The notes under the pieces were generated by a model. That model was not told the DNA's origin, did no database searches, and was given only the letters and a program-made list of their open reading frames with translations. Position numbers and translations under genes: made by a program. Below, in pieces: positions 3,465 to 9,952 of a stretch of 12,762 nucleotides of DNA. This DNA comes from Acidobacteriota bacterium (lineage in GTDB: Bacteria > Acidobacteriota > UBA6911 > JACQSX01): NCBI GenBank assembly GCA_036507075.1, contig DASXQR010000090.1:1-12762 (forward strand). Direction: 5' to 3'. How positions within the stretch are numbered: the stretch's first letter is position 1; the number at the start of each line of letters is the position of its first letter.

Positions 3465-3668
3465 AATGCGGAATGCGGAATGCGGAATACTGTTACGTAA
3501 GTCGTTAACGCGTACTTGGTCTGGTGCCTTTGTGGTTGAAGAGAATGAACCACCAAGGCACCAAGCTAGATTTTAAACTTGGTTGCCTTTATTCCGCATT
3601 CCGCATTCCAAATTCCGGATTTCGTAATTCCGCATTCCGCATTCCTCATTCCGCATTCCAAAATCCGC
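3465..3668. repeat. Inverted 7-mer tandem arrays: (AATGCGG)x3+AAT at 3465-3488 and about 11 ATTCCGC-like units at 3591-3668
   Basis: Read directly. The two arrays are reverse complements and fill the gap between two convergent genes. Confidence 0.95.
3522..3563. repeat. Inner palindrome TGGTGCCTTTGTGGTT-N10-AACCACCAAGGCACCA nested between the 7-mer arrays
   Basis: Arms are 15/16 complementary. The arm resembles the ACCACAAAGACACAAAG end of the 1525-1674 element. Confidence 0.85.
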
Positions 3669-3686: not shown

Positions 3687-5045
3687 TTAATAGGGCCAGG
3701 CGGTTCCATCCTGGCGGCGGATGGTCGGCCGTGAGCGGCGTACGTAGGGATATTTCTTGGCCGCCGTCTCGTTGACTTCGATCCCCAGTCCCGGCTTGTT
3801 GTTAATACTGATGTTGCCGTCGCGGAAACTGGGGACGTCGGAAAAGACTTCCCGAATCGCGTCGCCCCAACTGGCTGCGTGTTCCTGTATGCCAAAATTC
3901 GGCACGGCAAAGCTGACGTGACAATTGGCCATGTGAGCTACCGGCGAAATGTTGCCGGGTCCGTGCCAGGCGGTCAGGATTCCGTAGGGCTCACACACAG
4001 TCGCAACTTTTTTCCCTGCCGTAATACCTCCGCAGTGGACCAGATCATGGCGCACGTAATCGATCAGGTGTTCTGTGATCAGTCCCAGGCCATCCCACTG
4101 ACCGGTGTAAATTTCGCCCATCGCAACTGGAATGCTCGACTGCTGCCGGATCAGCCGAAACGAATCCAGGTGCTCCGGGCGCAGCGGGTCTTCGTAATAA
4201 AAAAGATTGTAGGGTTCGAGCGCCTTTGCGAGCCCTACCGCCTGATTGGGCGTAATCCTTTCGTGTACGTCGTGCAAAAGCTCGATCTGTTCGCCCAAAT
4301 TTTTTCGCAGGTGTTCAAAAAGTTTGGGCAGCGTGCGAACGTACGGCCCGGGCTCCCAGATTTCGCTCGGCGCTGACTCCTCATCGTAGGCCTTCTGAAT
4401 CGCCGCCCGTTGCCGCTCAGAAGGAGGGACCGCATAACCTCCTTCCATTCCCGGCGCCGACACCTGCACTTTTATCACCCGATATCCGCGCGCCATTAGT
4501 TTGCGCGCTCCTTCTTCGACTTCCTGAAAGTTGCGCCCGCCGATGCTCGTGTAAGTGAGCAGTTGGTCGCGCGCCTTTCCTCCAAGCAACTCATACACCG
4601 GTAGCCCGGCCACTTTTCCTTTGATGTCCCACAACGCCATGTCAATTCCACTGATGGCCGACATGTGCACAGAACCCGACCGGTAGTAGGGAAGAAAGAA
4701 CAAAGTCTGCCAGATATCTTCGATCCGCATCGGATTCCGCCCGAGCAATCCAGGCCTCATATGCTCTTCCAAAAACTTGGCAACTCCCAGCTCACTGCCG
4801 GAGCAGGTGGCGTCTCCCCAGCCATAAAGCCCTGCCTGATCAGTGAGCACTTTGACGAGCACATAATTGCCCAGCGCAGATTTTGCGGGATTGGTGACCA
4901 ACACCTGCAGATCAGTAATCTTTAAGCCTGCCGCCGCCGGCGCGCCGGACACGCCCTGCCCTGATGCTGTACTAAAAGAGCGAAGAGACGAACCGGCAGC
5001 TCCTGCGGCTGTAAACGCCGAGGCAAGAAAATTACGCCTTTTCAT
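3687..5045 (-). CDS. Mandelate racemase/enolase-superfamily acid-sugar dehydratase, D-mannonate dehydratase (ManD/RspA)-like subgroup, with twin-arginine signal peptide
   Basis: Motifs: MKRRNFL Tat motif, GWGDAT, AISGIDMALWDIKGK, PVYELLGGK, LLHDVHER, YEDP, MGE, WHGP, IQE, PGLGIEVNE. GGGAGAG RBS-like sequence lies just upstream of the ATG. Confidence 0.9.
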   Translation of the reverse strand: MKRRNFLASAFTAAGAAGSSLRSFSTASGQGVSGAPAAAGLKITDLQVLVTNPAKSALGNYVLVKVLTDQAGLYGWGDATCSGSELGVAKFLEEHMRPGLLGRNPMRIEDIWQTLFFLPYYRSGSVHMSAISGIDMALWDIKGKVAGLPVYELLGGKARDQLLTYTSIGGRNFQEVEEGARKLMARGYRVIKVQVSAPGMEGGYAVPPSERQRAAIQKAYDEESAPSEIWEPGPYVRTLPKLFEHLRKNLGEQIELLHDVHERITPNQAVGLAKALEPYNLFYYEDPLRPEHLDSFRLIRQQSSIPVAMGEIYTGQWDGLGLITEHLIDYVRHDLVHCGGITAGKKVATVCEPYGILTAWHGPGNISPVAHMANCHVSFAVPNFGIQEHAASWGDAIREVFSDVPSFRDGNISINNKPGLGIEVNETAAKKYPYVRRSRPTIRRQDGTAWPY

Positions 5046-5121
5046 AGAATCTCTCCCGGGGAAGGAATAATAACTACCACATTTTCGAGCTTGGCCGGGA
5101 AAGAGACTTCAACACAGAGGC

Positions 5122-5288
5122 ACAGCCCGGCCGTAGGCCGCAACCAAATGCGTCATCGGTCATCGGTCATTAGTCATTAGTTAAGGAAATCGCTAACAGG
5201 GTTACACAGCTATGGCTGTCTAAAATCGTCGCAGAATGAAAAGAAACTCGGGGTTAGTAGTACAGCCCGGCCGTAGGCCGCAACCAAA
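5122..5288 (+). repeat. Two identical 27-bp direct repeats ACAGCCCGGCCGTAGGCCGCAACCAAA (5122-5148 and 5262-5288)
   Basis: Exact copies 140 bp apart. Each has a CGGCC-GTA-GGCCG hairpin followed by CAACCAA. Confidence 0.95.
5152..5182 (+). repeat. 7-mer tandem array GTCATCG x2, GTCATTA x2, GTT
   Basis: Read directly, starting 3 nt after the first 27-bp repeat. Confidence 0.9.
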
Positions 5289-5292
5289 AAGC

Positions 5293-5380
5293 CGTCCACG
5301 AAAACGTCAACGACCACGGTTAACGTTTACGCGCACGAGCACGACAACCTCCACGTTCGGCGTTCGCGAGCACGGGCACG
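5293..5380 (+). repeat. Degenerate 6-mer array (CGnnnA, about 14 units), with reverse-orientation CGTGGN units at 5431-5455 and 5845-5859
   Basis: CGTCCA CGAAAA CGTCAA CGACCA CGGTTAA CGTTTA CGCGCA CGAGCA CGACAA ... CGAGCA CGGGCA CG: ACG recurs about every 6 nt. Confidence 0.8.
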
Positions 5381-5520
5381 CAGTGGCCGTAAGGCCACAA
5401 CCAAGCTGATCGGATAAAACGGCGCGTCCCCGTGGACGTTGGACGTGGTCGTGCAAGTGCTACCGAACCGTGAGTTCTGGTTTTTTTAACCACATTTTTC
5501 ATTACACGTTAGGAAGCGGA

Positions 5521-5542
5521 GAGACGGCCTGAGGGCCGTCTC
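5521..5542. other. Perfect 9-bp-stem hairpin GAGACGGCC-TGAG-GGCCGTCTC
   Basis: Read directly. No U-tract follows it. Confidence 0.7.
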
Positions 5543-5544
5543 CA

Positions 5545-5780
5545 GACCGCGCAGCGGTCAAGGAGAGTAGCCGGGGGCAAGCGCGTCTTTTGCGCGCCGC
5601 CCCCGGCCGCGTCCCCCAATCAGGAGCGACCCTGAAAGGGTCGAAGAGCGGCGGGGTGACGGCGATCTTGAAAACGGTTCCGGCACCCTTTCAGGGTGCG
5701 CCGGTTGGGGGAAGCTCACCGGGGGCGGCGCGCAAAAAACGCGCTTGCCCCCGGCCACTCTATTTGACGCTTTCAGCGTC
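5545..5780. repeat. REP-like composite inverted repeat; each arm carries three hairpins
   Basis: 43-bp arms 5564-5606 and 5719-5761 differ at 2 positions. ACCCTGAAAGGGT (5629-5641) is the reverse complement of 5685-5697. Terminal hairpins lie at 5545-5559 and 5766-5780. Confidence 0.9.
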
Positions 5781-5938
5781 CAGACCGGCAATTCAATACT
5801 CTGAGTCTCCTTTTTGGTTGTGGCCTTACGGCCACTGTAGGAGACGTGGTCGTGGACGTCACTGCTGTCCAGGCGACAGCAGGGATGGTGTGTACTGAAT
5901 CGCCACGGACAAGCACCGCAGTTTTGCCAGTGCGCTTA

Positions 5939-5965
5939 TGGTAGATTACGTAGAACACTTGTTCT
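5939..5965 (+). promoter_or_regulatory. Candidate extended -10 (TGGTAGATT) followed by palindromic operator AGAACA-CT-TGTTCT upstream of the TonB-dependent receptor
   Basis: TGn+TAGATT at 5939-5947, palindrome at 5952-5965, G-rich RBS at 5966-5971, ATG at 5977. Confidence 0.35.
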
Positions 5966-5976
5966 GGGGGGTGTCT

Positions 5977-8900
5977 ATGAAATCCCAACGTTTGGCTTCT
6001 CTTCTCCTTATTCTTTGGATGACCGCAGCGCTCACGGCCGAGGCATGGGCGCAGACGGGAACCGGCGATGTGCAGGGCACGGTCAAAGATACGTCGGGCG
6101 CAGTTGTGATCGGAGCGACTGTGGCGATTACTCAGGCGCAGACCGCCCGGCGCCAGGAGACGGTGACAAACAGCGCCGGATTTTTCCTGATTCCCTTATT
6201 GCAGCCGGGAGGATACAAGATTTCTGTGGAAGCGCCAGGCATGCAGCCCTGGCAGGGAGAGCTCACGCTGCAGGTGGGACAAAATGCAGTGGTCGATCCG
6301 GTGCTGAACGTTGCCGCAAACGTAACTCAAATTCAGGTGGTGGGGGACGTGACCCCGCTGGTGACAACCACCAGCGCCACACTGGGCAATGTGGTCGAAC
6401 GCGCGCGCATCGATCAGTTGCCCCTGAACGGGCGTTTTTTCCAGACGCTGGTGCAGGCTACCACGCCCGGGCTGGAAGGCGCATCGAGCAGCCCTCGTGT
6501 CTTCGGCTTAAGACCGACCTCGATGGAGTTTCTGCAGGACGGGGCAGTGCTTACCAATCGCGATACCGGCGAGCTTTCGGGCCGGCCTCCGGGATTGGAT
6601 ACGATCGAGGAGTTTCGAGTGGAGACCAGCAACTCTTCGGCGAAAATGAACCGCCCGGCCGCCACGATTATTTCAACCAAGAGCGGGTCGAACGGAATTC
6701 ACGGCGCCGTATTCGAGACGCACCGCAACAATTCGTTTGGTGTGGCACGCCGGCGGCAGGACTTTTATGACAAGCCGCCGCACCTGGTGCGCAACGAGTT
6801 CGGGGCATCGCTCGGCGGGCCGGTTTATCTGCCAAAACTTTACAGCGGCACGAACCGCACCTTCTTCTTTTTCGCTTTCGAAGCCTACCGCAATTTTTCG
6901 GCAAATACGACCAGCACCAGCATGCCGACGATGGCGATGCGCCGCGGAGACTTCAGCGGGCTGGTGGACAGCGCCGGGCGGCGCATTACCCTCTATGATC
7001 CCTGGACCACCGATCCTAAGACCTGGCAGCGGCAGCCATTTCCCAACAACGTCATTCCGATCCAGCGCCAGAGCCCGCTGGCGAAATACTTTTACAGCGT
7101 CACACCGGAACCGACGCTCCCGGATGTCAATCCTCTAGTGGCCAGTAATTATTTCGGCCCGGCTGTATCTATTCGCCTGGACCATACCGAAACGCTGCGC
7201 CTGGATCATAAACTGAGCGACCGGGATCAATTCTTCGCGCGGCTTACCTATGGGAATCGCTGGGCCAAGAACCGATCGGGTGAAAACGGCTCGCCCACCA
7301 TGCTCGACGAAGCGGGCAACGTGACGTTTCGTCCGGTAAAAGATCGCAGCGCCGTCGCGTCATGGACTCACACCCTCTCTCCAACTTTTTTCAGCGAAAC
7401 GCTTGGTTCGGCCTCTTACGAGAACCTGTCGCTCTATGTAGGCACGGATCACATCAATCATGCCGACCGACTAGGGATGCCCAACCCCTTTCACGAGACG
7501 GGGCTTCCAAACTTCAGCAGCACCGGCTTCGGCATGGTGTATTCCTACGCCGACAACAAGCGAACCAACATTACGCAGGTTTACAGCCTCGATCAGAACT
7601 TTACAAAAATTCTGGGAAGGCATGAGCTTCAGTTCGGCGGGCGTTTTCGCCACGAGAGACTGCATGTGCTTCCCGATCAGCAGCAGGTGCAGGGAAATCA
7701 CAGCTTCTCCAGCCTGGCCACGGCACTCTATGATCCCAACTCCGGATCGGCCTACAACGCCTTGCCGCGGACGGGTCATGACAGCGCGAACCTGTTCCTC
7801 GGAGTTGTCGGTTCCTATTCTGCGCAGTTTGTGCGCAAGTGGTACCAGCTTCGCGCGCGGGAGTATGCCGGGTACTTCCAGGACAATTTCAAATTGAATT
7901 CCCGGCTCACGCTGAACATGGGCCTGCGATGGGAGTTCTACCCTGCGATTCGGGAACGGAACAATATCCTTACAGGATTCGACCTGCAATCCAAATCAAT
8001 CATCAATGGCGTATCGCTTGAGAAGATGTACCAGTTGGGAGTGACTAATCCGGCCATCGTTTCGAATTTCACAAGCATCGGCGTCAAGTTCATTACTCCC
8101 GACCAGACAGGATTGCCGAACACGCTGATCTATTCCAATCCGCGTGATTTTGGGCCTCGCGCGGGCTTTGCCTATCGACTCACGAATGGGCGAAACTTCA
8201 CCGTGTTGAGAGGTGGCTACTCGCTGTACGCATTTCCGATCCCGCTGCGTACGTTCAACGCGCGGATGCGCCAGAATGCGCCGACCAACGCGCGTTTCAC
8301 ACAGTCGTTAACCAGCGCTGCTCAGAGTCCTGATGGCCTGCCAAATTATGGTTTGCGCTCGATCCCGACCATCATTGCCGGGGTAAACAGTCGAGATATG
8401 CTGGATCCCAGCCAGCCGGGCGGCGTTACACGCGGCTCTTTTCTCACCAGCTTCTTTGATCCTCATCAGCCCAGCACGCGCGCGCATGAGTGGAACCTCA
8501 CAGTGGAGAGGCAGATCCTGGACGGCATGGTCATTCGCGCCGGTTATATCGGCACGCACGGCAGCAAGCTCGACCAGTTTTACACGTTCAACGAGCAGCC
8601 GAACAACTATGTCTGGTTTGTGAATACCGGACTTCCGCTGCCGACCGGTGAGTTTTCCGGTGTGGCGCGCCGGAATTTCGATCGTGTCACTTATGGCAAT
8701 ATCGAGATGTACAGCAAGACCGGCTGGTCGAATTTCAACGGCATGCAGCTTGAAGTCCAGCGCCGCTATGCGCGCGGCTACGCTTTCCAATTCTTCTATG
8801 TGTTAAGCAACGCATTTCGGGCGGGGGGAAACGGGTGGAGCGACGACTTTGTCCAGGAGCCGAATATGTTTCTCAGCGGCGCGCTTCCGTCCGATTTGAA

Positions 8901-9663
8901 GCAGCGCAACCGGCTGCTGAACTACCGGCGCGACCCGGAGATTCCGAAGCATCGAATGCGCTGGAACTGGATTGTCGACCTTCCTTTCGGGCGCGGCCGC
9001 CGCTTCGGCGGAGACGCCGGGGGGGTTCTCGATCGGATAATCGGCGGCTGGCAAATTGCCGGATTCGGCGGCATGAGAAGCAACTACTGGCAATTGCCGA
9101 CGGGCAATTGGGGCGAGCTGGGAAAAATCGAAATCTATGGGAAGAAGTATCCGATTCAGGATTGCCGCAGCGGCAGGTGCATTAACGGATATCTCTGGTA
9201 CAACGGCTACATTCCGGCCCACCGGATCAACAGCGTCAACGCCCAGGGCCAGCCAAACGGTGTAATGGGTGTGCCGGCCAGTTACCATCCTTCTTCGCAG
9301 CCGGTGATTCCGACTCCGGCAAACGGGGGGAGCTCTAGCGACCCGAATTTCAATTTTTACGAAACGCAGTCCGTCCTGGTCAGACTGCAAAACGGGTCAT
9401 TGCAGCGGACCAATCTCGATACCAATCTGCATCCCTGGCGCAATCAAGTCCTGCCCGGACCGCGGAGCTGGAGTCTGGATGCATCGCTCTTCAAGAATAT
9501 TCCGATCAACGAACGACTGGCGCTGCGCTTTAATGCAGATCTTTTCAACGTTCTGAATATGCCCGGCCTCAACCTGCCGAATTCTACAAGCGGAATTGTG
9601 AGCCTGCAGGACTCGGCCAGTGAAGCCAGGCAGTTGCAGTTGACTCTGAGATTGACCTGGTGA
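5977..9663 (+). CDS. TonB-dependent receptor, Oar-like, with N-terminal carboxypeptidase-regulatory-like domain
   Basis: Signal peptide MKSQRLASLLLILWMTAALTAEAWA-Q after a G-rich RBS (preferred to ATG 5938). Motifs: GDVQGTVKDTSGAVVIGATV, IDQLPLNGR, EEFRVET, TKSGSN, RNEFGASLGGP, YFQDNFKLNSRLTLNMGLRWE, GPRAGFAY, C-terminal QLQLTLRLTW. Confidence 0.95.
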   Translation: MKSQRLASLLLILWMTAALTAEAWAQTGTGDVQGTVKDTSGAVVIGATVAITQAQTARRQETVTNSAGFFLIPLLQPGGYKISVEAPGMQPWQGELTLQVGQNAVVDPVLNVAANVTQIQVVGDVTPLVTTTSATLGNVVERARIDQLPLNGRFFQTLVQATTPGLEGASSSPRVFGLRPTSMEFLQDGAVLTNRDTGELSGRPPGLDTIEEFRVETSNSSAKMNRPAATIISTKSGSNGIHGAVFETHRNNSFGVARRRQDFYDKPPHLVRNEFGASLGGPVYLPKLYSGTNRTFFFFAFEAYRNFSANTTSTSMPTMAMRRGDFSGLVDSAGRRITLYDPWTTDPKTWQRQPFPNNVIPIQRQSPLAKYFYSVTPEPTLPDVNPLVASNYFGPAVSIRLDHTETLRLDHKLSDRDQFFARLTYGNRWAKNRSGENGSPTMLDEAGNVTFRPVKDRSAVASWTHTLSPTFFSETLGSASYENLSLYVGTDHINHADRLGMPNPFHETGLPNFSSTGFGMVYSYADNKRTNITQVYSLDQNFTKILGRHELQFGGRFRHERLHVLPDQQQVQGNHSFSSLATALYDPNSGSAYNALPRTGHDSANLFLGVVGSYSAQFVRKWYQLRAREYAGYFQDNFKLNSRLTLNMGLRWEFYPAIRERNNILTGFDLQSKSIINGVSLEKMYQLGVTNPAIVSNFTSIGVKFITPDQTGLPNTLIYSNPRDFGPRAGFAYRLTNGRNFTVLRGGYSLYAFPIPLRTFNARMRQNAPTNARFTQSLTSAAQSPDGLPNYGLRSIPTIIAGVNSRDMLDPSQPGGVTRGSFLTSFFDPHQPSTRAHEWNLTVERQILDGMVIRAGYIGTHGSKLDQFYTFNEQPNNYVWFVNTGLPLPTGEFSGVARRNFDRVTYGNIEMYSKTGWSNFNGMQLEVQRRYARGYAFQFFYVLSNAFRAGGNGWSDDFVQEPNMFLSGALPSDLKQRNRLLNYRRDPEIPKHRMRWNWIVDLPFGRGRRFGGDAGGVLDRIIGGWQIAGFGGMRSNYWQLPTGNWGELGKIEIYGKKYPIQDCRSGRCINGYLWYNGYIPAHRINSVNAQGQPNGVMGVPASYHPSSQPVIPTPANGGSSSDPNFNFYETQSVLVRLQNGSLQRTNLDTNLHPWRNQVLPGPRSWSLDASLFKNIPINERLALRFNADLFNVLNMPGLNLPNSTSGIVSLQDSASEARQLQLTLRLTW

Positions 9664-9732
9664 CCCGGCTTTAGTACCTGAACTGCAGTAGTAGAGCACT
9701 CAACTCCGCCGCCGTCAGAGCCTCGCGCGTAA

Positions 9733-9858
9733 GGGCGTGTGAAAAAATCGACGCCACCGGGGCAAGCCCGGTGGCGTCGGTTTCTCCGACAGGCTCCTAG
9801 TGAAGAATCGCCTTCACCACCGGGGCAAGCCCGGTGGCGTCGATTTTTTCACACGTTC
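9733..9858. mobile_element. 126-bp MITE-like element with 26-bp perfect inverted repeats, flanked by TAA on both sides
   Basis: CGTGTGAAAAAATCGACGCCACCGGG (9736-9761) is the reverse complement of 9830-9855. TAA at 9730-9732 and 9859-9861. Two identical 26-bp hairpin units CCACCGGGGCAAGCCCGGTGGCGTCG at 9754-9779 and 9817-9842. Confidence 0.7.
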
Positions 9859-9952
9859 TAAACACGGGGGCCCGCCGGACTGACAATATCCCGCGGGCTT
9901 ACATCGGCGTGCCCGGCTGCTGCCGCAACCGGCTCTGCCATTGGTGAAAATT

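Follow-up and report, generated by a model that had tools for sequence, protein, structure and literature searches.

What process could pack hairpins, short tandem arrays and a large palindrome, one inside another, into a single gap between two genes? The question is raised by positions 5110 to about 5871 of a stretch of DNA from an Acidobacteriota bacterium. This stretch, called the window below, is 12,762 nucleotides long and is contig C90 of the source genome G000 (6.1 Mb, 233 contigs, 95.7% complete; other C numbers are contigs of the same genome). With a probability of about 0.72, we interpret the region as four stacked gene-less derivatives of an unnamed insertion sequence (IS) family. 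These derivatives would have inserted at fixed points in the arms of tandem-repeat elements, would carry cargo, and were likely moved in trans by rolling-circle transposition through a predicted Rep_trans-like tyrosine nickase. We parse the region as follows:

5110-5121, plus strand: head of a 9-mer (CACAGAG-type) array, the left half of the insertion target; the same head stands before 150 of 223 left ends
5122-5147, plus strand: left end 1 (5 nt, a GC hairpin of 5 bp, AACCAA), a putative ter-like end; the motif also lies upstream of full-length open reading frames (ORFs)
5148-5183, plus strand: cargo, one arm of a GTCATT-type 7-mer array; this arm follows 32 left ends
5184-5205, plus strand: 'K'-type right end, shortened by a 20-nt internal deletion, as aligned to the paralog on C68
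5206-5261, plus strand: 15-nt tail and 41-nt right end of another subfamily, starting with TAA; single-copy in G000
5262-5287, plus strand: left end 2, identical to left end 1 and abutting the preceding right end; the same end-to-end junction occurs at C36 and C149
5288-5377, plus strand: cargo, left arm of a 6-mer (CACGTC-type) fold-back element; such arms follow 83 left ends
5378-5404, plus strand: left end 3, in the 6-mer arm, with a T-A pair replacing a C-G stem pair; 6-bp hairpin
5405-5429, plus strand: truncated cargo of left end 3, right end missing; starts like longer paralogs on C3, C83, C162 and C192
5430-5458, minus strand: right arm of the 6-mer element, first part; continues at 5841 in the C59 paralog
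5459-5840, minus strand: complete 382-bp mini-element in the 6-mer arm, with a left end and an X-type right end; the array resumes after it
5459-5515, minus strand: the X-type right end (7 of this type in G000) with the spacer next to it
5516-5542, no strand: hairpin (GAGACGG-type) resembling a repetitive extragenic palindrome (REP); about 240 copies
5543-5780, no strand: six-hairpin palindrome, a gene-less, REPIN-like relative of a cassette of the REP-associated tyrosine transposase RAYT; matches the flanks of the Y1 gene C85:28958
5781-5813, minus strand: spacer from left end 4 to the palindrome; common to C18, C53, C211 and C34
5814-5840, minus strand: left end 4, the left-end-3 variant on the opposite strand
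5841-5859, minus strand: right arm of the 6-mer element, second part
5860-5871 (approximate), no strand: remnant of one more repeat module, matched over short lengths at 8 loci elsewhere

Element 1 would thus begin at 5122 and comprise the left end, the 7-mer arm and the shortened K right end at 5205; the tail and the second right end, which reaches 5261, come after it. Element 2, from 5262, appears to carry the 6-mer fold-back element and to have lost its right end; the right end expected to close left end 2 is absent from the window. Element 3, from 5378, lies inside the left 6-mer arm and seems to be truncated, and the joint from its cargo to the part beginning at 5430 is found in the window only. 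Element 4 (5459-5840, minus strand) is apparently complete; it sits inside the right 6-mer arm and carries the RAYT-related palindrome and the REP hairpin. It has paralogs over long stretches on C34 (96% identity), C2 (94%), C53 (97%), and C18 and C211 (94%). The paralog of the right 6-mer arm on C59 has 5 more bases at the 5458/5841 joint. The variant seen in left end 3 comes after a 6-mer array in 15 of its 17 copies, and the 24-bp inverted repeat of the region would consist of the opposed left ends of elements 3 and 4. Elements 3 and 4 are younger than the 6-mer element because both interrupt it.

An original prediction, made from the letters of the window, had listed most of these pieces. 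They are found where it placed them, the repeat types it named are multi-copy in G000 by BLAST, and it was right that no protein is encoded, the four left ends and three right ends being present with no gene. It overlooked the right ends, of which there are three (plus strand 5184-5205 and 5221-5261; minus strand from 5459), and these matter because right ends define the elements. All three match ends of full-length family members. Between the intact K right end and that of L129, a full-length element, 35 of 41 positions agree, the piece at 5206-5261 aligns to the L062 right end with a score of 55 (null maximum 30), and the X-type right end aligns to that of full-length L118, also with a score of 55. 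The second right end measures 41 nt from TAA to the cut, 36 of 54 full-length ends measure 41-43 nt, and right ends similar to the 5206-5261 piece are present in the related genome G004. An explanation of the hairpin unit as a stand-alone 25-nt element or a recombination scar was displaced by these right ends and by the full-length parents.

Are such elements a property of this locus or of the genome? A census of left ends in G000 gave 223 good copies among 236 pattern matches, and the hairpin stands before 139 of 1,137 RCAACCAR words; with three control words the figures are 11-14 of 423-726. Upstream of the 223 left ends we find 150 heads of 9-mer arrays, 21 6-mer arrays, 12 right ends of other elements, 4 other 9-mers and 36 unclassified sequences, in agreement with the earlier claim of non-autonomous elements inserted into one another. 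The cargo downstream (n = 236) is a 6-mer array in 83 cases, a REP hairpin in 46, a 7-mer array in 32, and something else in 75. Conserved right ends, of three types, come behind the cargo and are followed by the rest of the interrupted array; G000 has 93-148 right ends of the K type, depending on stringency, and for 84 of the 223 left ends a partner right end lies no more than 700 bp away. In 30 of the 32 pairs that could be scored, the array has one and the same G/A subtype on either side (p = 7e-7), near-identical copies of an element occur in both array subtypes, and uninterrupted (empty) 9-mer heads number 302 in G000. The resumption of arrays with matching subtype also fits the suggestion that mobilizing enzymes encoded elsewhere target other repeats. 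One of the empty heads lies in the window itself, at about 1525-1553; it belongs to an uninterrupted 9-mer fold-back element (1525-1675), an empty target of the kind used at 5121. The right arm of that element overlaps the N-terminal part of a 621-aa ORF called from 1596; the real start of this ORF probably lies downstream of that position.

The element spans from the hairpin-CAACCAA left end to a TAGTAGT/GTTAC-type right end and sits between a C and an ACAG-like word; 35 of 41 copies with hairpin cargo begin TTAGC, and the target resumes with ACAG. The left and right end consensus sequences are unrelated, both in G000 and at full-length loci, and there are no terminal inverted repeats. The conserved hairpin is at the left end only: the K-type and second right ends of the window fold unstably, and the X-type gives weak hairpins. 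A few copies hinted at a 4-bp target duplication, which was rejected since the first bases of the element vary independently of the target; next to the right end the letters of the target start again, and these letters covary with the left flank and not with those first bases. The mini-elements thus appear to be site-specific insertions of fixed orientation, with neither target duplication nor inverted ends. Among relatives, a strict pattern for the left end was found in 1 of 40 genomes, and a looser pattern gave 45, 44, 15 and 12 copies in four of the five closest. At six loci in G000, among them C10:54906-54995, C31:9435-9656, C228:62675-62896 and C226:5526-5849, left ends face each other with outer array heads on both sides; these loci are fully symmetric palindromes, for which two insertions plus a deletion, or template switching, are candidate origins.

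What, then, is the autonomous parent? An exact-pattern scan of a genome collection found the unit at 20 loci, with titles in six phyla (counting Holophagaceae, Vicinamibacterales and Fimbriimonas in the phyla to which we take them to belong), and at 2 of the 20 a long ORF, of one kind in both, begins about 100-200 nt after it. When extended, the loci reveal a complete 1.7-kb element: left end, one ORF, its stop, a right end of about 40 nt, and the resumed target. Among 86 loci with a near-complete ORF, 70 had enough upstream and 75 enough downstream DNA to be scored against reverse-strand and shuffle controls; the left end is upstream of the ~515-aa ORF in 56 of the 70 (controls 0 and 0.7), and the right end follows the stop in 54 of the 75 (controls 1-3.2). 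The full-length target reads C^RYAG(A), and 23 of the 46 full-length insertions with both ends mapped are in 9-mer arrays, where 1.6 would be expected. At the junctions of 44 full-length elements, letter agreement is at chance at three of four positions. Element L129, from the same order as G000, is the full-length twin of the commonest mini-element of G000 and sits in the same array. Genome G041 has one full-length element and two gene-less derivatives with ends identical in kind, and G096 has three identical copies, of which the two examined have different flanks.

The ORF family is large: it has at least 7,919 clusters when grouped at 90% identity, mostly on element-sized contigs, and 6,799 representatives when grouped at 50%, and it is present in 25 of 401 genomes sampled from the phylum of the window. 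Among the relatives of G000, G004 has a fragment of the transposase, and in G005 the gene is intact. Not all family members choose their target alike: a subfamily with CATAGT-type right ends uses ATAG targets outside arrays (L064, L065, L085, L086, L089 and L102). In the right flank of L044, the full-length element sits in the loop of a GTAG-type REP hairpin, which means that REPs of RAYT are also targets. Five loci (L072, L076, L077, L078 and L092) have no left end within 450 nt upstream of the ORF; by eye, the upstream DNA of L076, L077, L078 and L092 resembles an oppositely oriented GxxExxY gene and may be captured cargo.

The protein has escaped annotation. Two N-terminal fragments (368 and 331 aa) had no family match in Pfam and NCBIfam, the ORF family has no sequence relative in PDB, six members had no match in PHROG below E 0.001, and in 301 genomes no Rep_trans reference protein was over the cut-off. 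Homologues in 13 plasmid records are annotated as hypothetical or as an ArsR-family regulator. The AlphaFold2 model (mean confidence score, pLDDT, 91.4) has as its top Foldseek match in PDB the plasmid initiator RepSTK1 (4CIJ, E 1.8e-3), with TATA-binding protein (TBP) and RepDE lower. VIA-align gave a Z of 8.1 to TBP (root-mean-square deviation, rmsd, 3.6; 173 residues aligned, within residues 1-390), 6.7 to RepSTK1 (rmsd 5.3, 198 aligned) and 6.5 to RepDE; the C-terminus matches a MarR-type winged helix (Z 8.4). For comparison, a passage of PMC4797284 gives 5.4 for RepSTK1 itself against TBP. Across 93 diverse members, D20, E247, D251, K319, Y321, K323, R329 and E331 are 95-100% conserved (Y321, R329 and E331 100%, D20 97%, K323 95%), Y321 lies in the modeled strand 316-323, and no conserved HUH column is present in the 93 proteins. 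The catalytic residues reported for RepD in passages of PMC4797284 are D46, D142/D146, R189/Y191/K193 and R212/E214, and passages of PMC5714925 define motifs N', III and IV. The near-invariant polar residues of the present family parallel this Rep_trans active-site spacing, so the protein is predicted to be a Rep_trans-like nickase, yet it is not a member of PF02486. The enzymes listed by the original prediction (HUH/RAYT, IS110, IS5 or a tyrosine recombinase) would give way to an unannotated, predicted Rep_trans-like family; IS110 was rejected as the enzyme of the carrier, as its transposase domain PF02371 was not found in G000 and the parent ORF has no PF02371 match.

How might such an enzyme move the elements? 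In those parts of a preprint (10.1101/2025.01.24.634351) and of PMC5714925 that describe it, IS91 has a hairpin near the cut at its left end, a target word abutting the other end, no terminal inverted repeats and no target duplication. The family studied here resembles IS91/ISCR elements, and by analogy Helitrons, in its two distinct ends, the lack of terminal inverted repeats and of target duplication, and the short target at one end. It differs in that the IS91 transposase is an HUH enzyme and the present family has no conserved HUH and a predicted TBP-like fold, and in that its target, C^RYAG(A), lies mostly in tandem arrays and its gene-less derivatives number hundreds per genome. By analogy with IS91, the enzyme, acting in trans on gene-less elements, would nick the bottom strand at the right end beside the target word (ori); one strand would be displaced, and the second cut would fall at the first left-end hairpin that is met (ter). 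The stretch between a right end and the left end upstream of it would then travel as a single unit; the diversity of the cargo and the recurrence of composite blocks would be accounted for in this way. As the left end usually starts with the target word, and the word would also be kept beside the right end, insertions would leave fresh targets and copies could stack end to end. Cargo capture and end-to-end stacking would thus follow from the proposed rules of nicking and termination, and tandem ends with varied cargo are only suggestive of circular intermediates or one-ended transposition in the manner of IS91.

Several observations weigh against this interpretation. As to the elements, 139 of the 223 left ends have no recognized right end within 700 bp, though some of these are at contig ends or have intervening elements, and two of the four left ends of the window lack one as well. 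The minimal target word occurs 16,414 times in G000, and the preference for arrays therefore needs something more. The related loci are the closest matches to one query and not a random sample, and the right-end cut points of full-length insertions come from patterns written by eye after the sequences had been seen. The transposase was not found in the assemblies G000, G001 and G003, the latter two having 45 and 44 left ends. As to the protein, the support for the fold is moderate: two members covering the predicted catalytic region have no PF02486 match at E up to 1, no structural match in PDB reached E 0.001, and the Z values of the Rep proteins (6.5-6.7) are below that of TBP and in the range that the tool calls 'possibly common'. 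The correspondence of residues was drawn from motif spacing and not from superposed coordinates: E247-x-A-x-D251 resembles D142-x-A-x-D146 of RepD, motif I (RxD) has no Arg, motif II (T/SxY/ExG) is not evident, and motif III has no Glu. The assignment of ori and ter, transposition, nicking and the single-strand intermediate rest on analogy. Finally, the listed assembly contigs leave 5142-5284 unbridged, so that the block 5148-5283 has no independent bridge.

An alternative explanation keeps the same ends and the same enzyme and has a single-stranded circle excised and pasted, or the ends joined by conservative recombination. The IS200/IS605 family, which moves by such excision, and its gene-less PATE derivatives have features shared by the elements described here: small gene-less derivatives, a hairpin at an end and no target duplication. 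The absence of duplication and of inverted ends and the hairpin end fit this alternative equally, and the favored fold-back arrays are what would be expected of single-stranded or cruciform substrates. However, a conserved hairpin is found at one end only, the conserved target word adjoins the right end and not the left, an arrangement like that of IS91 (in IS200/IS605 and PATE it is on the opposite side), the parent ORF is not a Y1 HUH protein, and the predicted fold and motifs resemble rolling-circle initiators. We regard this alternative as unlikely and prefer rolling-circle transposition of the four mini-elements.

The cargo can be traced to mobile systems of other kinds. Gene-bearing relatives of the repeats occur in G000: 7-mers and 6-mers surround four-helix-bundle genes, 9-mers surround GxxExxY genes, and the arms of the palindrome surround a Y1 gene. 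The 7-mer arm at 5148-5183 is 85-95% identical to arrays flanking the four-helix-bundle gene C225:58772, arrays related to the 6-mer arm flank the four-helix-bundle gene C37:4158, and 9-mer-type arrays flank the GxxExxY gene C152:81104. The palindrome matches the two inverted flanks of the Y1 transposase gene C85:28958 (77% over 106 nt and 93% over 29 nt), and hairpins of the 5516-5542 type cluster just upstream of gene remnants at C17:50767 and C82:44486, labeled RAYT-like by eye from their likeness to the C88 protein. The cargo repeats thus appear to be gene-less relatives of separate cassettes (four-helix-bundle, GxxExxY and RAYT). Gene-less 6-mer elements at C192:81793 and on C34, C36 and C167 retain scraps of the four-helix gene and a promoter motif in their loop, and the gene after RAYT at C122:12891 looks, by eye, like a YraN-family nuclease.

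That motif, a pair of boxes upstream of cassette genes, would connect the cargo with the host. A matrix built from the upstream regions of 14 of 18 cassette genes finds 54 sites of at least 23 bits in G000 and none in two shuffles (examples are C111:1523, C110:8684, C23:18273 and C100:20610), and the motif is common to the RAYT, four-helix and GxxExxY genes and to recA, dprA, comEC-like and comM-like genes. Among 20 of 42 further downstream ORFs, chosen by eye and searched against Pfam, 13 belong to families of DNA uptake or recombination (RecA, SSB, DprA, ComEC-, ComM-, ComEA- and ComF-like, RadC, RecQ, RecG, UvrD, ERCC4 and pilin), 1 is a Y1 protein, and 6 have no match. We infer that the shared two-box motif is a competence promoter. 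Unannotated genes under the motif (L002, L003, L008, L010 and L020) may belong to competence or to mobile elements. For the transposase of the carrier itself a competence promoter was rejected, the best score being 6.5 bits in 69 leaders, a result that is weakly informative because the leaders come mostly from other taxa; a decayed competence promoter at 5224-5262 (12.6 bits) was set aside as well, since the region is a right end (score 55 to L062).

A second alternative keeps the origin of the ends in this IS family but has the copies in G000 spread without the family enzyme, either moved by the RAYT (HUH) proteins of the genome or copied from array to array by RecA-dependent gene conversion during natural transformation. 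It would account for the failure to find a family transposase in G000 and is in keeping with the 12 Y1 matches in that genome and with the upstream motif that the cassettes share with recA, dprA, and the comEC-like and comM-like genes. Nevertheless, copies of 150 bp that are nearly identical lie in arrays of unlike subtype, each array having matching sides; this speaks for fresh insertions and not for co-conversion of flanks, and the cut position is the same as that of full-length elements in other taxa. The gene may also be unbinned, because the assembly is in 233 contigs and family proteins are usually found on isolated element-sized contigs. Spread without the enzyme is thus quite improbable, and an enzyme of the Rep_trans-like family acting in trans remains the explanation that we prefer.

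The predicted enzyme has relatives of a different occupation. It would share with Rep_trans proteins (RepSTK1, RepD/RepC) and Rep-Arvir a predicted TBP-like sheet, a Tyr-x-Lys in a strand, an LRxE and an N-terminal Asp, as these features appear in passages of PMC4797284 and PMC5714925, and with Rep-Arvir a fused MarR-like winged helix, as described in PMC13107129. That paper also lists A0A2N9QVX7 and A0A345MNV4 as viral structural matches of the Rep-Arvir Rep, and both are also matches of the present protein family. Passages of PMC4797284, PMC5714925 and PMC13107129 on Rep_trans and Rep-Arvir enzymes assign them to plasmid and virus replication and to conjugation, not to IS transposition. In contrast, the ~515-aa protein has no PF02486 profile match and, in chromosomes, is the single protein enclosed by two element ends. 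The rolling-circle transposases treated in passages of PMC5714925 are HUH enzymes, and targeted full-text searches, with subscription journals and ISfinder outside their scope, found no description of a Rep_trans-type IS.

At the level of the repeats, precedents are closer. Passages of PMC3184786 and PMC3116915 describe intergenic mosaics of short repeats and mobile elements that land in repeats. Bacterial interspersed mosaic elements (BIMEs), REPINs with their RAYT, neisserial intergenic mosaic elements (NIMEs) and the REP-targeting IS621 and IS1594 resemble the present case in this respect, and two of the cargo modules (5516-5542 and 5543-5780) are RAYT-associated, as BIMEs and REPINs are; unlike in those systems, the organizing element here is a two-ended carrier with an enzyme of a different class. 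Inverted pairs of short tandem arrays in intergenic DNA are also known from Geobacter metallireducens, where, in passages of PMC2700814 on paired heptamer and octamer sites, they were proposed as regulator sites. Both that case and a cyanobacterial one differ from ours in that the present hairpin unit would belong, as one of its ends, to a larger element whose autonomous parent is known. The cyanobacterial case is that of the small dispersed repeats (SDR) of Nostoc, which Elhai in 2008 reportedly found to be tiny hairpin elements nested in heptamer arrays; these are said to be stand-alone units of 21-27 nt.

The finding would be new in kind at the level of the enzyme; the mosaic is real and well resolved, and the mechanism is proposed by analogy. 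More broadly, we think it reasonably probable that the family represents a new class of rolling-circle transposon, whose nickase would be a TBP-fold, Rep_trans-like tyrosine enzyme, neither HUH nor DDE. Hundreds of its gene-less carriers per genome would insert preferentially in the arms of other, selfish repeat cassettes and in one another's ends and would capture these cassettes as cargo, building layered mosaics of several unrelated, hitch-hiking mobile systems whose cargo is wired to the competence promoter of the host. If this is true, thousands of unannotated proteins with the other rolling-circle nickase fold would bring new chemistry to the IS classes, and a very common 'hypothetical protein' would be explained. 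The gene-less copies define the ends (about 26 nt on the left and about 40 nt on the right) and a precise target without duplication, a minimal mobile unit that, if it works, is a candidate tool for cargo-carrying insertion. The contribution of the locus itself is the anatomy of nesting, in which an apparently chaotic mosaic becomes an ordered series of insertions.

Is the mosaic itself sound? The 27-nt units at 5122-5148 and 5262-5288 are identical, the 7-mer run occupies 5152-5181, six small hairpins can be counted in the palindrome (5545-5780), and the inverted pair 5381-5404/5814-5837 is perfect (24/24). The fold of 5381-5837 has z = -16.65, with 0 of 100 shuffles equally stable; an Rfam scan of the region found no family at its threshold, and a 102-codon ORF (5590-5898) that crosses the palindrome was treated as spurious. 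By BLAST, G000 contains about 150 copies of the first unit, about 100 of the second, 218 of the single hairpin and 25-50 of the palindrome, and just the 56-nt piece 5206-5261 and the junction near 5425 are single-copy. Many junctions recur as one alignment across the joint: that of the head and the first unit at 104 loci, those of a unit with the 7-mer and with the 6-mer at 34 and 36, and that of the hairpin and the palindrome at 6. Besides the long sub-block paralogs on C34, C2 and C53 there is a more distant one on C83 (70% over 5109-5420). Because large sub-blocks recur elsewhere at 94-97% identity, the mosaic seems to be built partly from composites that move whole. The locus is among the two most complex of its kind in G000, but its sub-blocks are not unique to it, which speaks against the idea of a unique hotspot.

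Contigs of other sequencing runs match parts of the mosaic; among the runs listed for the region none is of RNA. Contigs of run X1, which may be the source sample, cover 4700-5142, 5284-5486 and 5812-6300 with 0 differences, and one from run X3 (another study, with a small share of words) covers 5350-5644 with 2 differences. No single contig piece bridges 5644-5812; 5186-5239 is uncovered in X1, X2 and X3, though X1 and X2 match both flanks, and such holes prove nothing. In contigs of X1 and X2, 5454 is connected to 5841 through 10 other letters. The last alternative, a MITE (miniature inverted-repeat transposable element) bounded by the 24-bp pair among unrelated REP-like repeats, or else a local assembly chimera, draws on the perfect 24/24 pair, in which the original prediction saw a single element opened by the third unit, and on the unbridged stretch 5142-5284, but it is very improbable and its MITE parse largely refuted, since the facing pair occurs in the window only among 102 clusters, each copy is a separate left end, the right-hand 'closing' copy belonging to the 382-bp minus-strand element with its own right end and five long paralogs that lack the other copy, no target duplication surrounds the pair, and contigs with 0-2 differences bridge 5284-5644 and both unique flanks.

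The mosaic occupies the gap between two divergent genes, both outside the elements:

3687-5045, minus strand: mandelate racemase/enolase-superfamily enzyme (PF13378, PF02746)
5938-9663, plus strand: TonB-dependent-receptor-like outer-membrane barrel (PF25183, PF13620)

No comparable empty allele was found in five relatives. The best full-length homologues of the flanking enzyme there are 42-48% identical (one partial match reaches 81-82%), and the five loci have no receptor gene beside the homologue; the orthologous gap therefore could not be compared. Elsewhere in the window, an AATGCGG 7-mer fold-back element at 3465-3668 has a small CACCAAG-type inverted pair nested in its middle, and a REP-like palindromic repeat pair (CCGGGGCAAGCCCGG-type) lies at 9700-9870 between two convergent genes.

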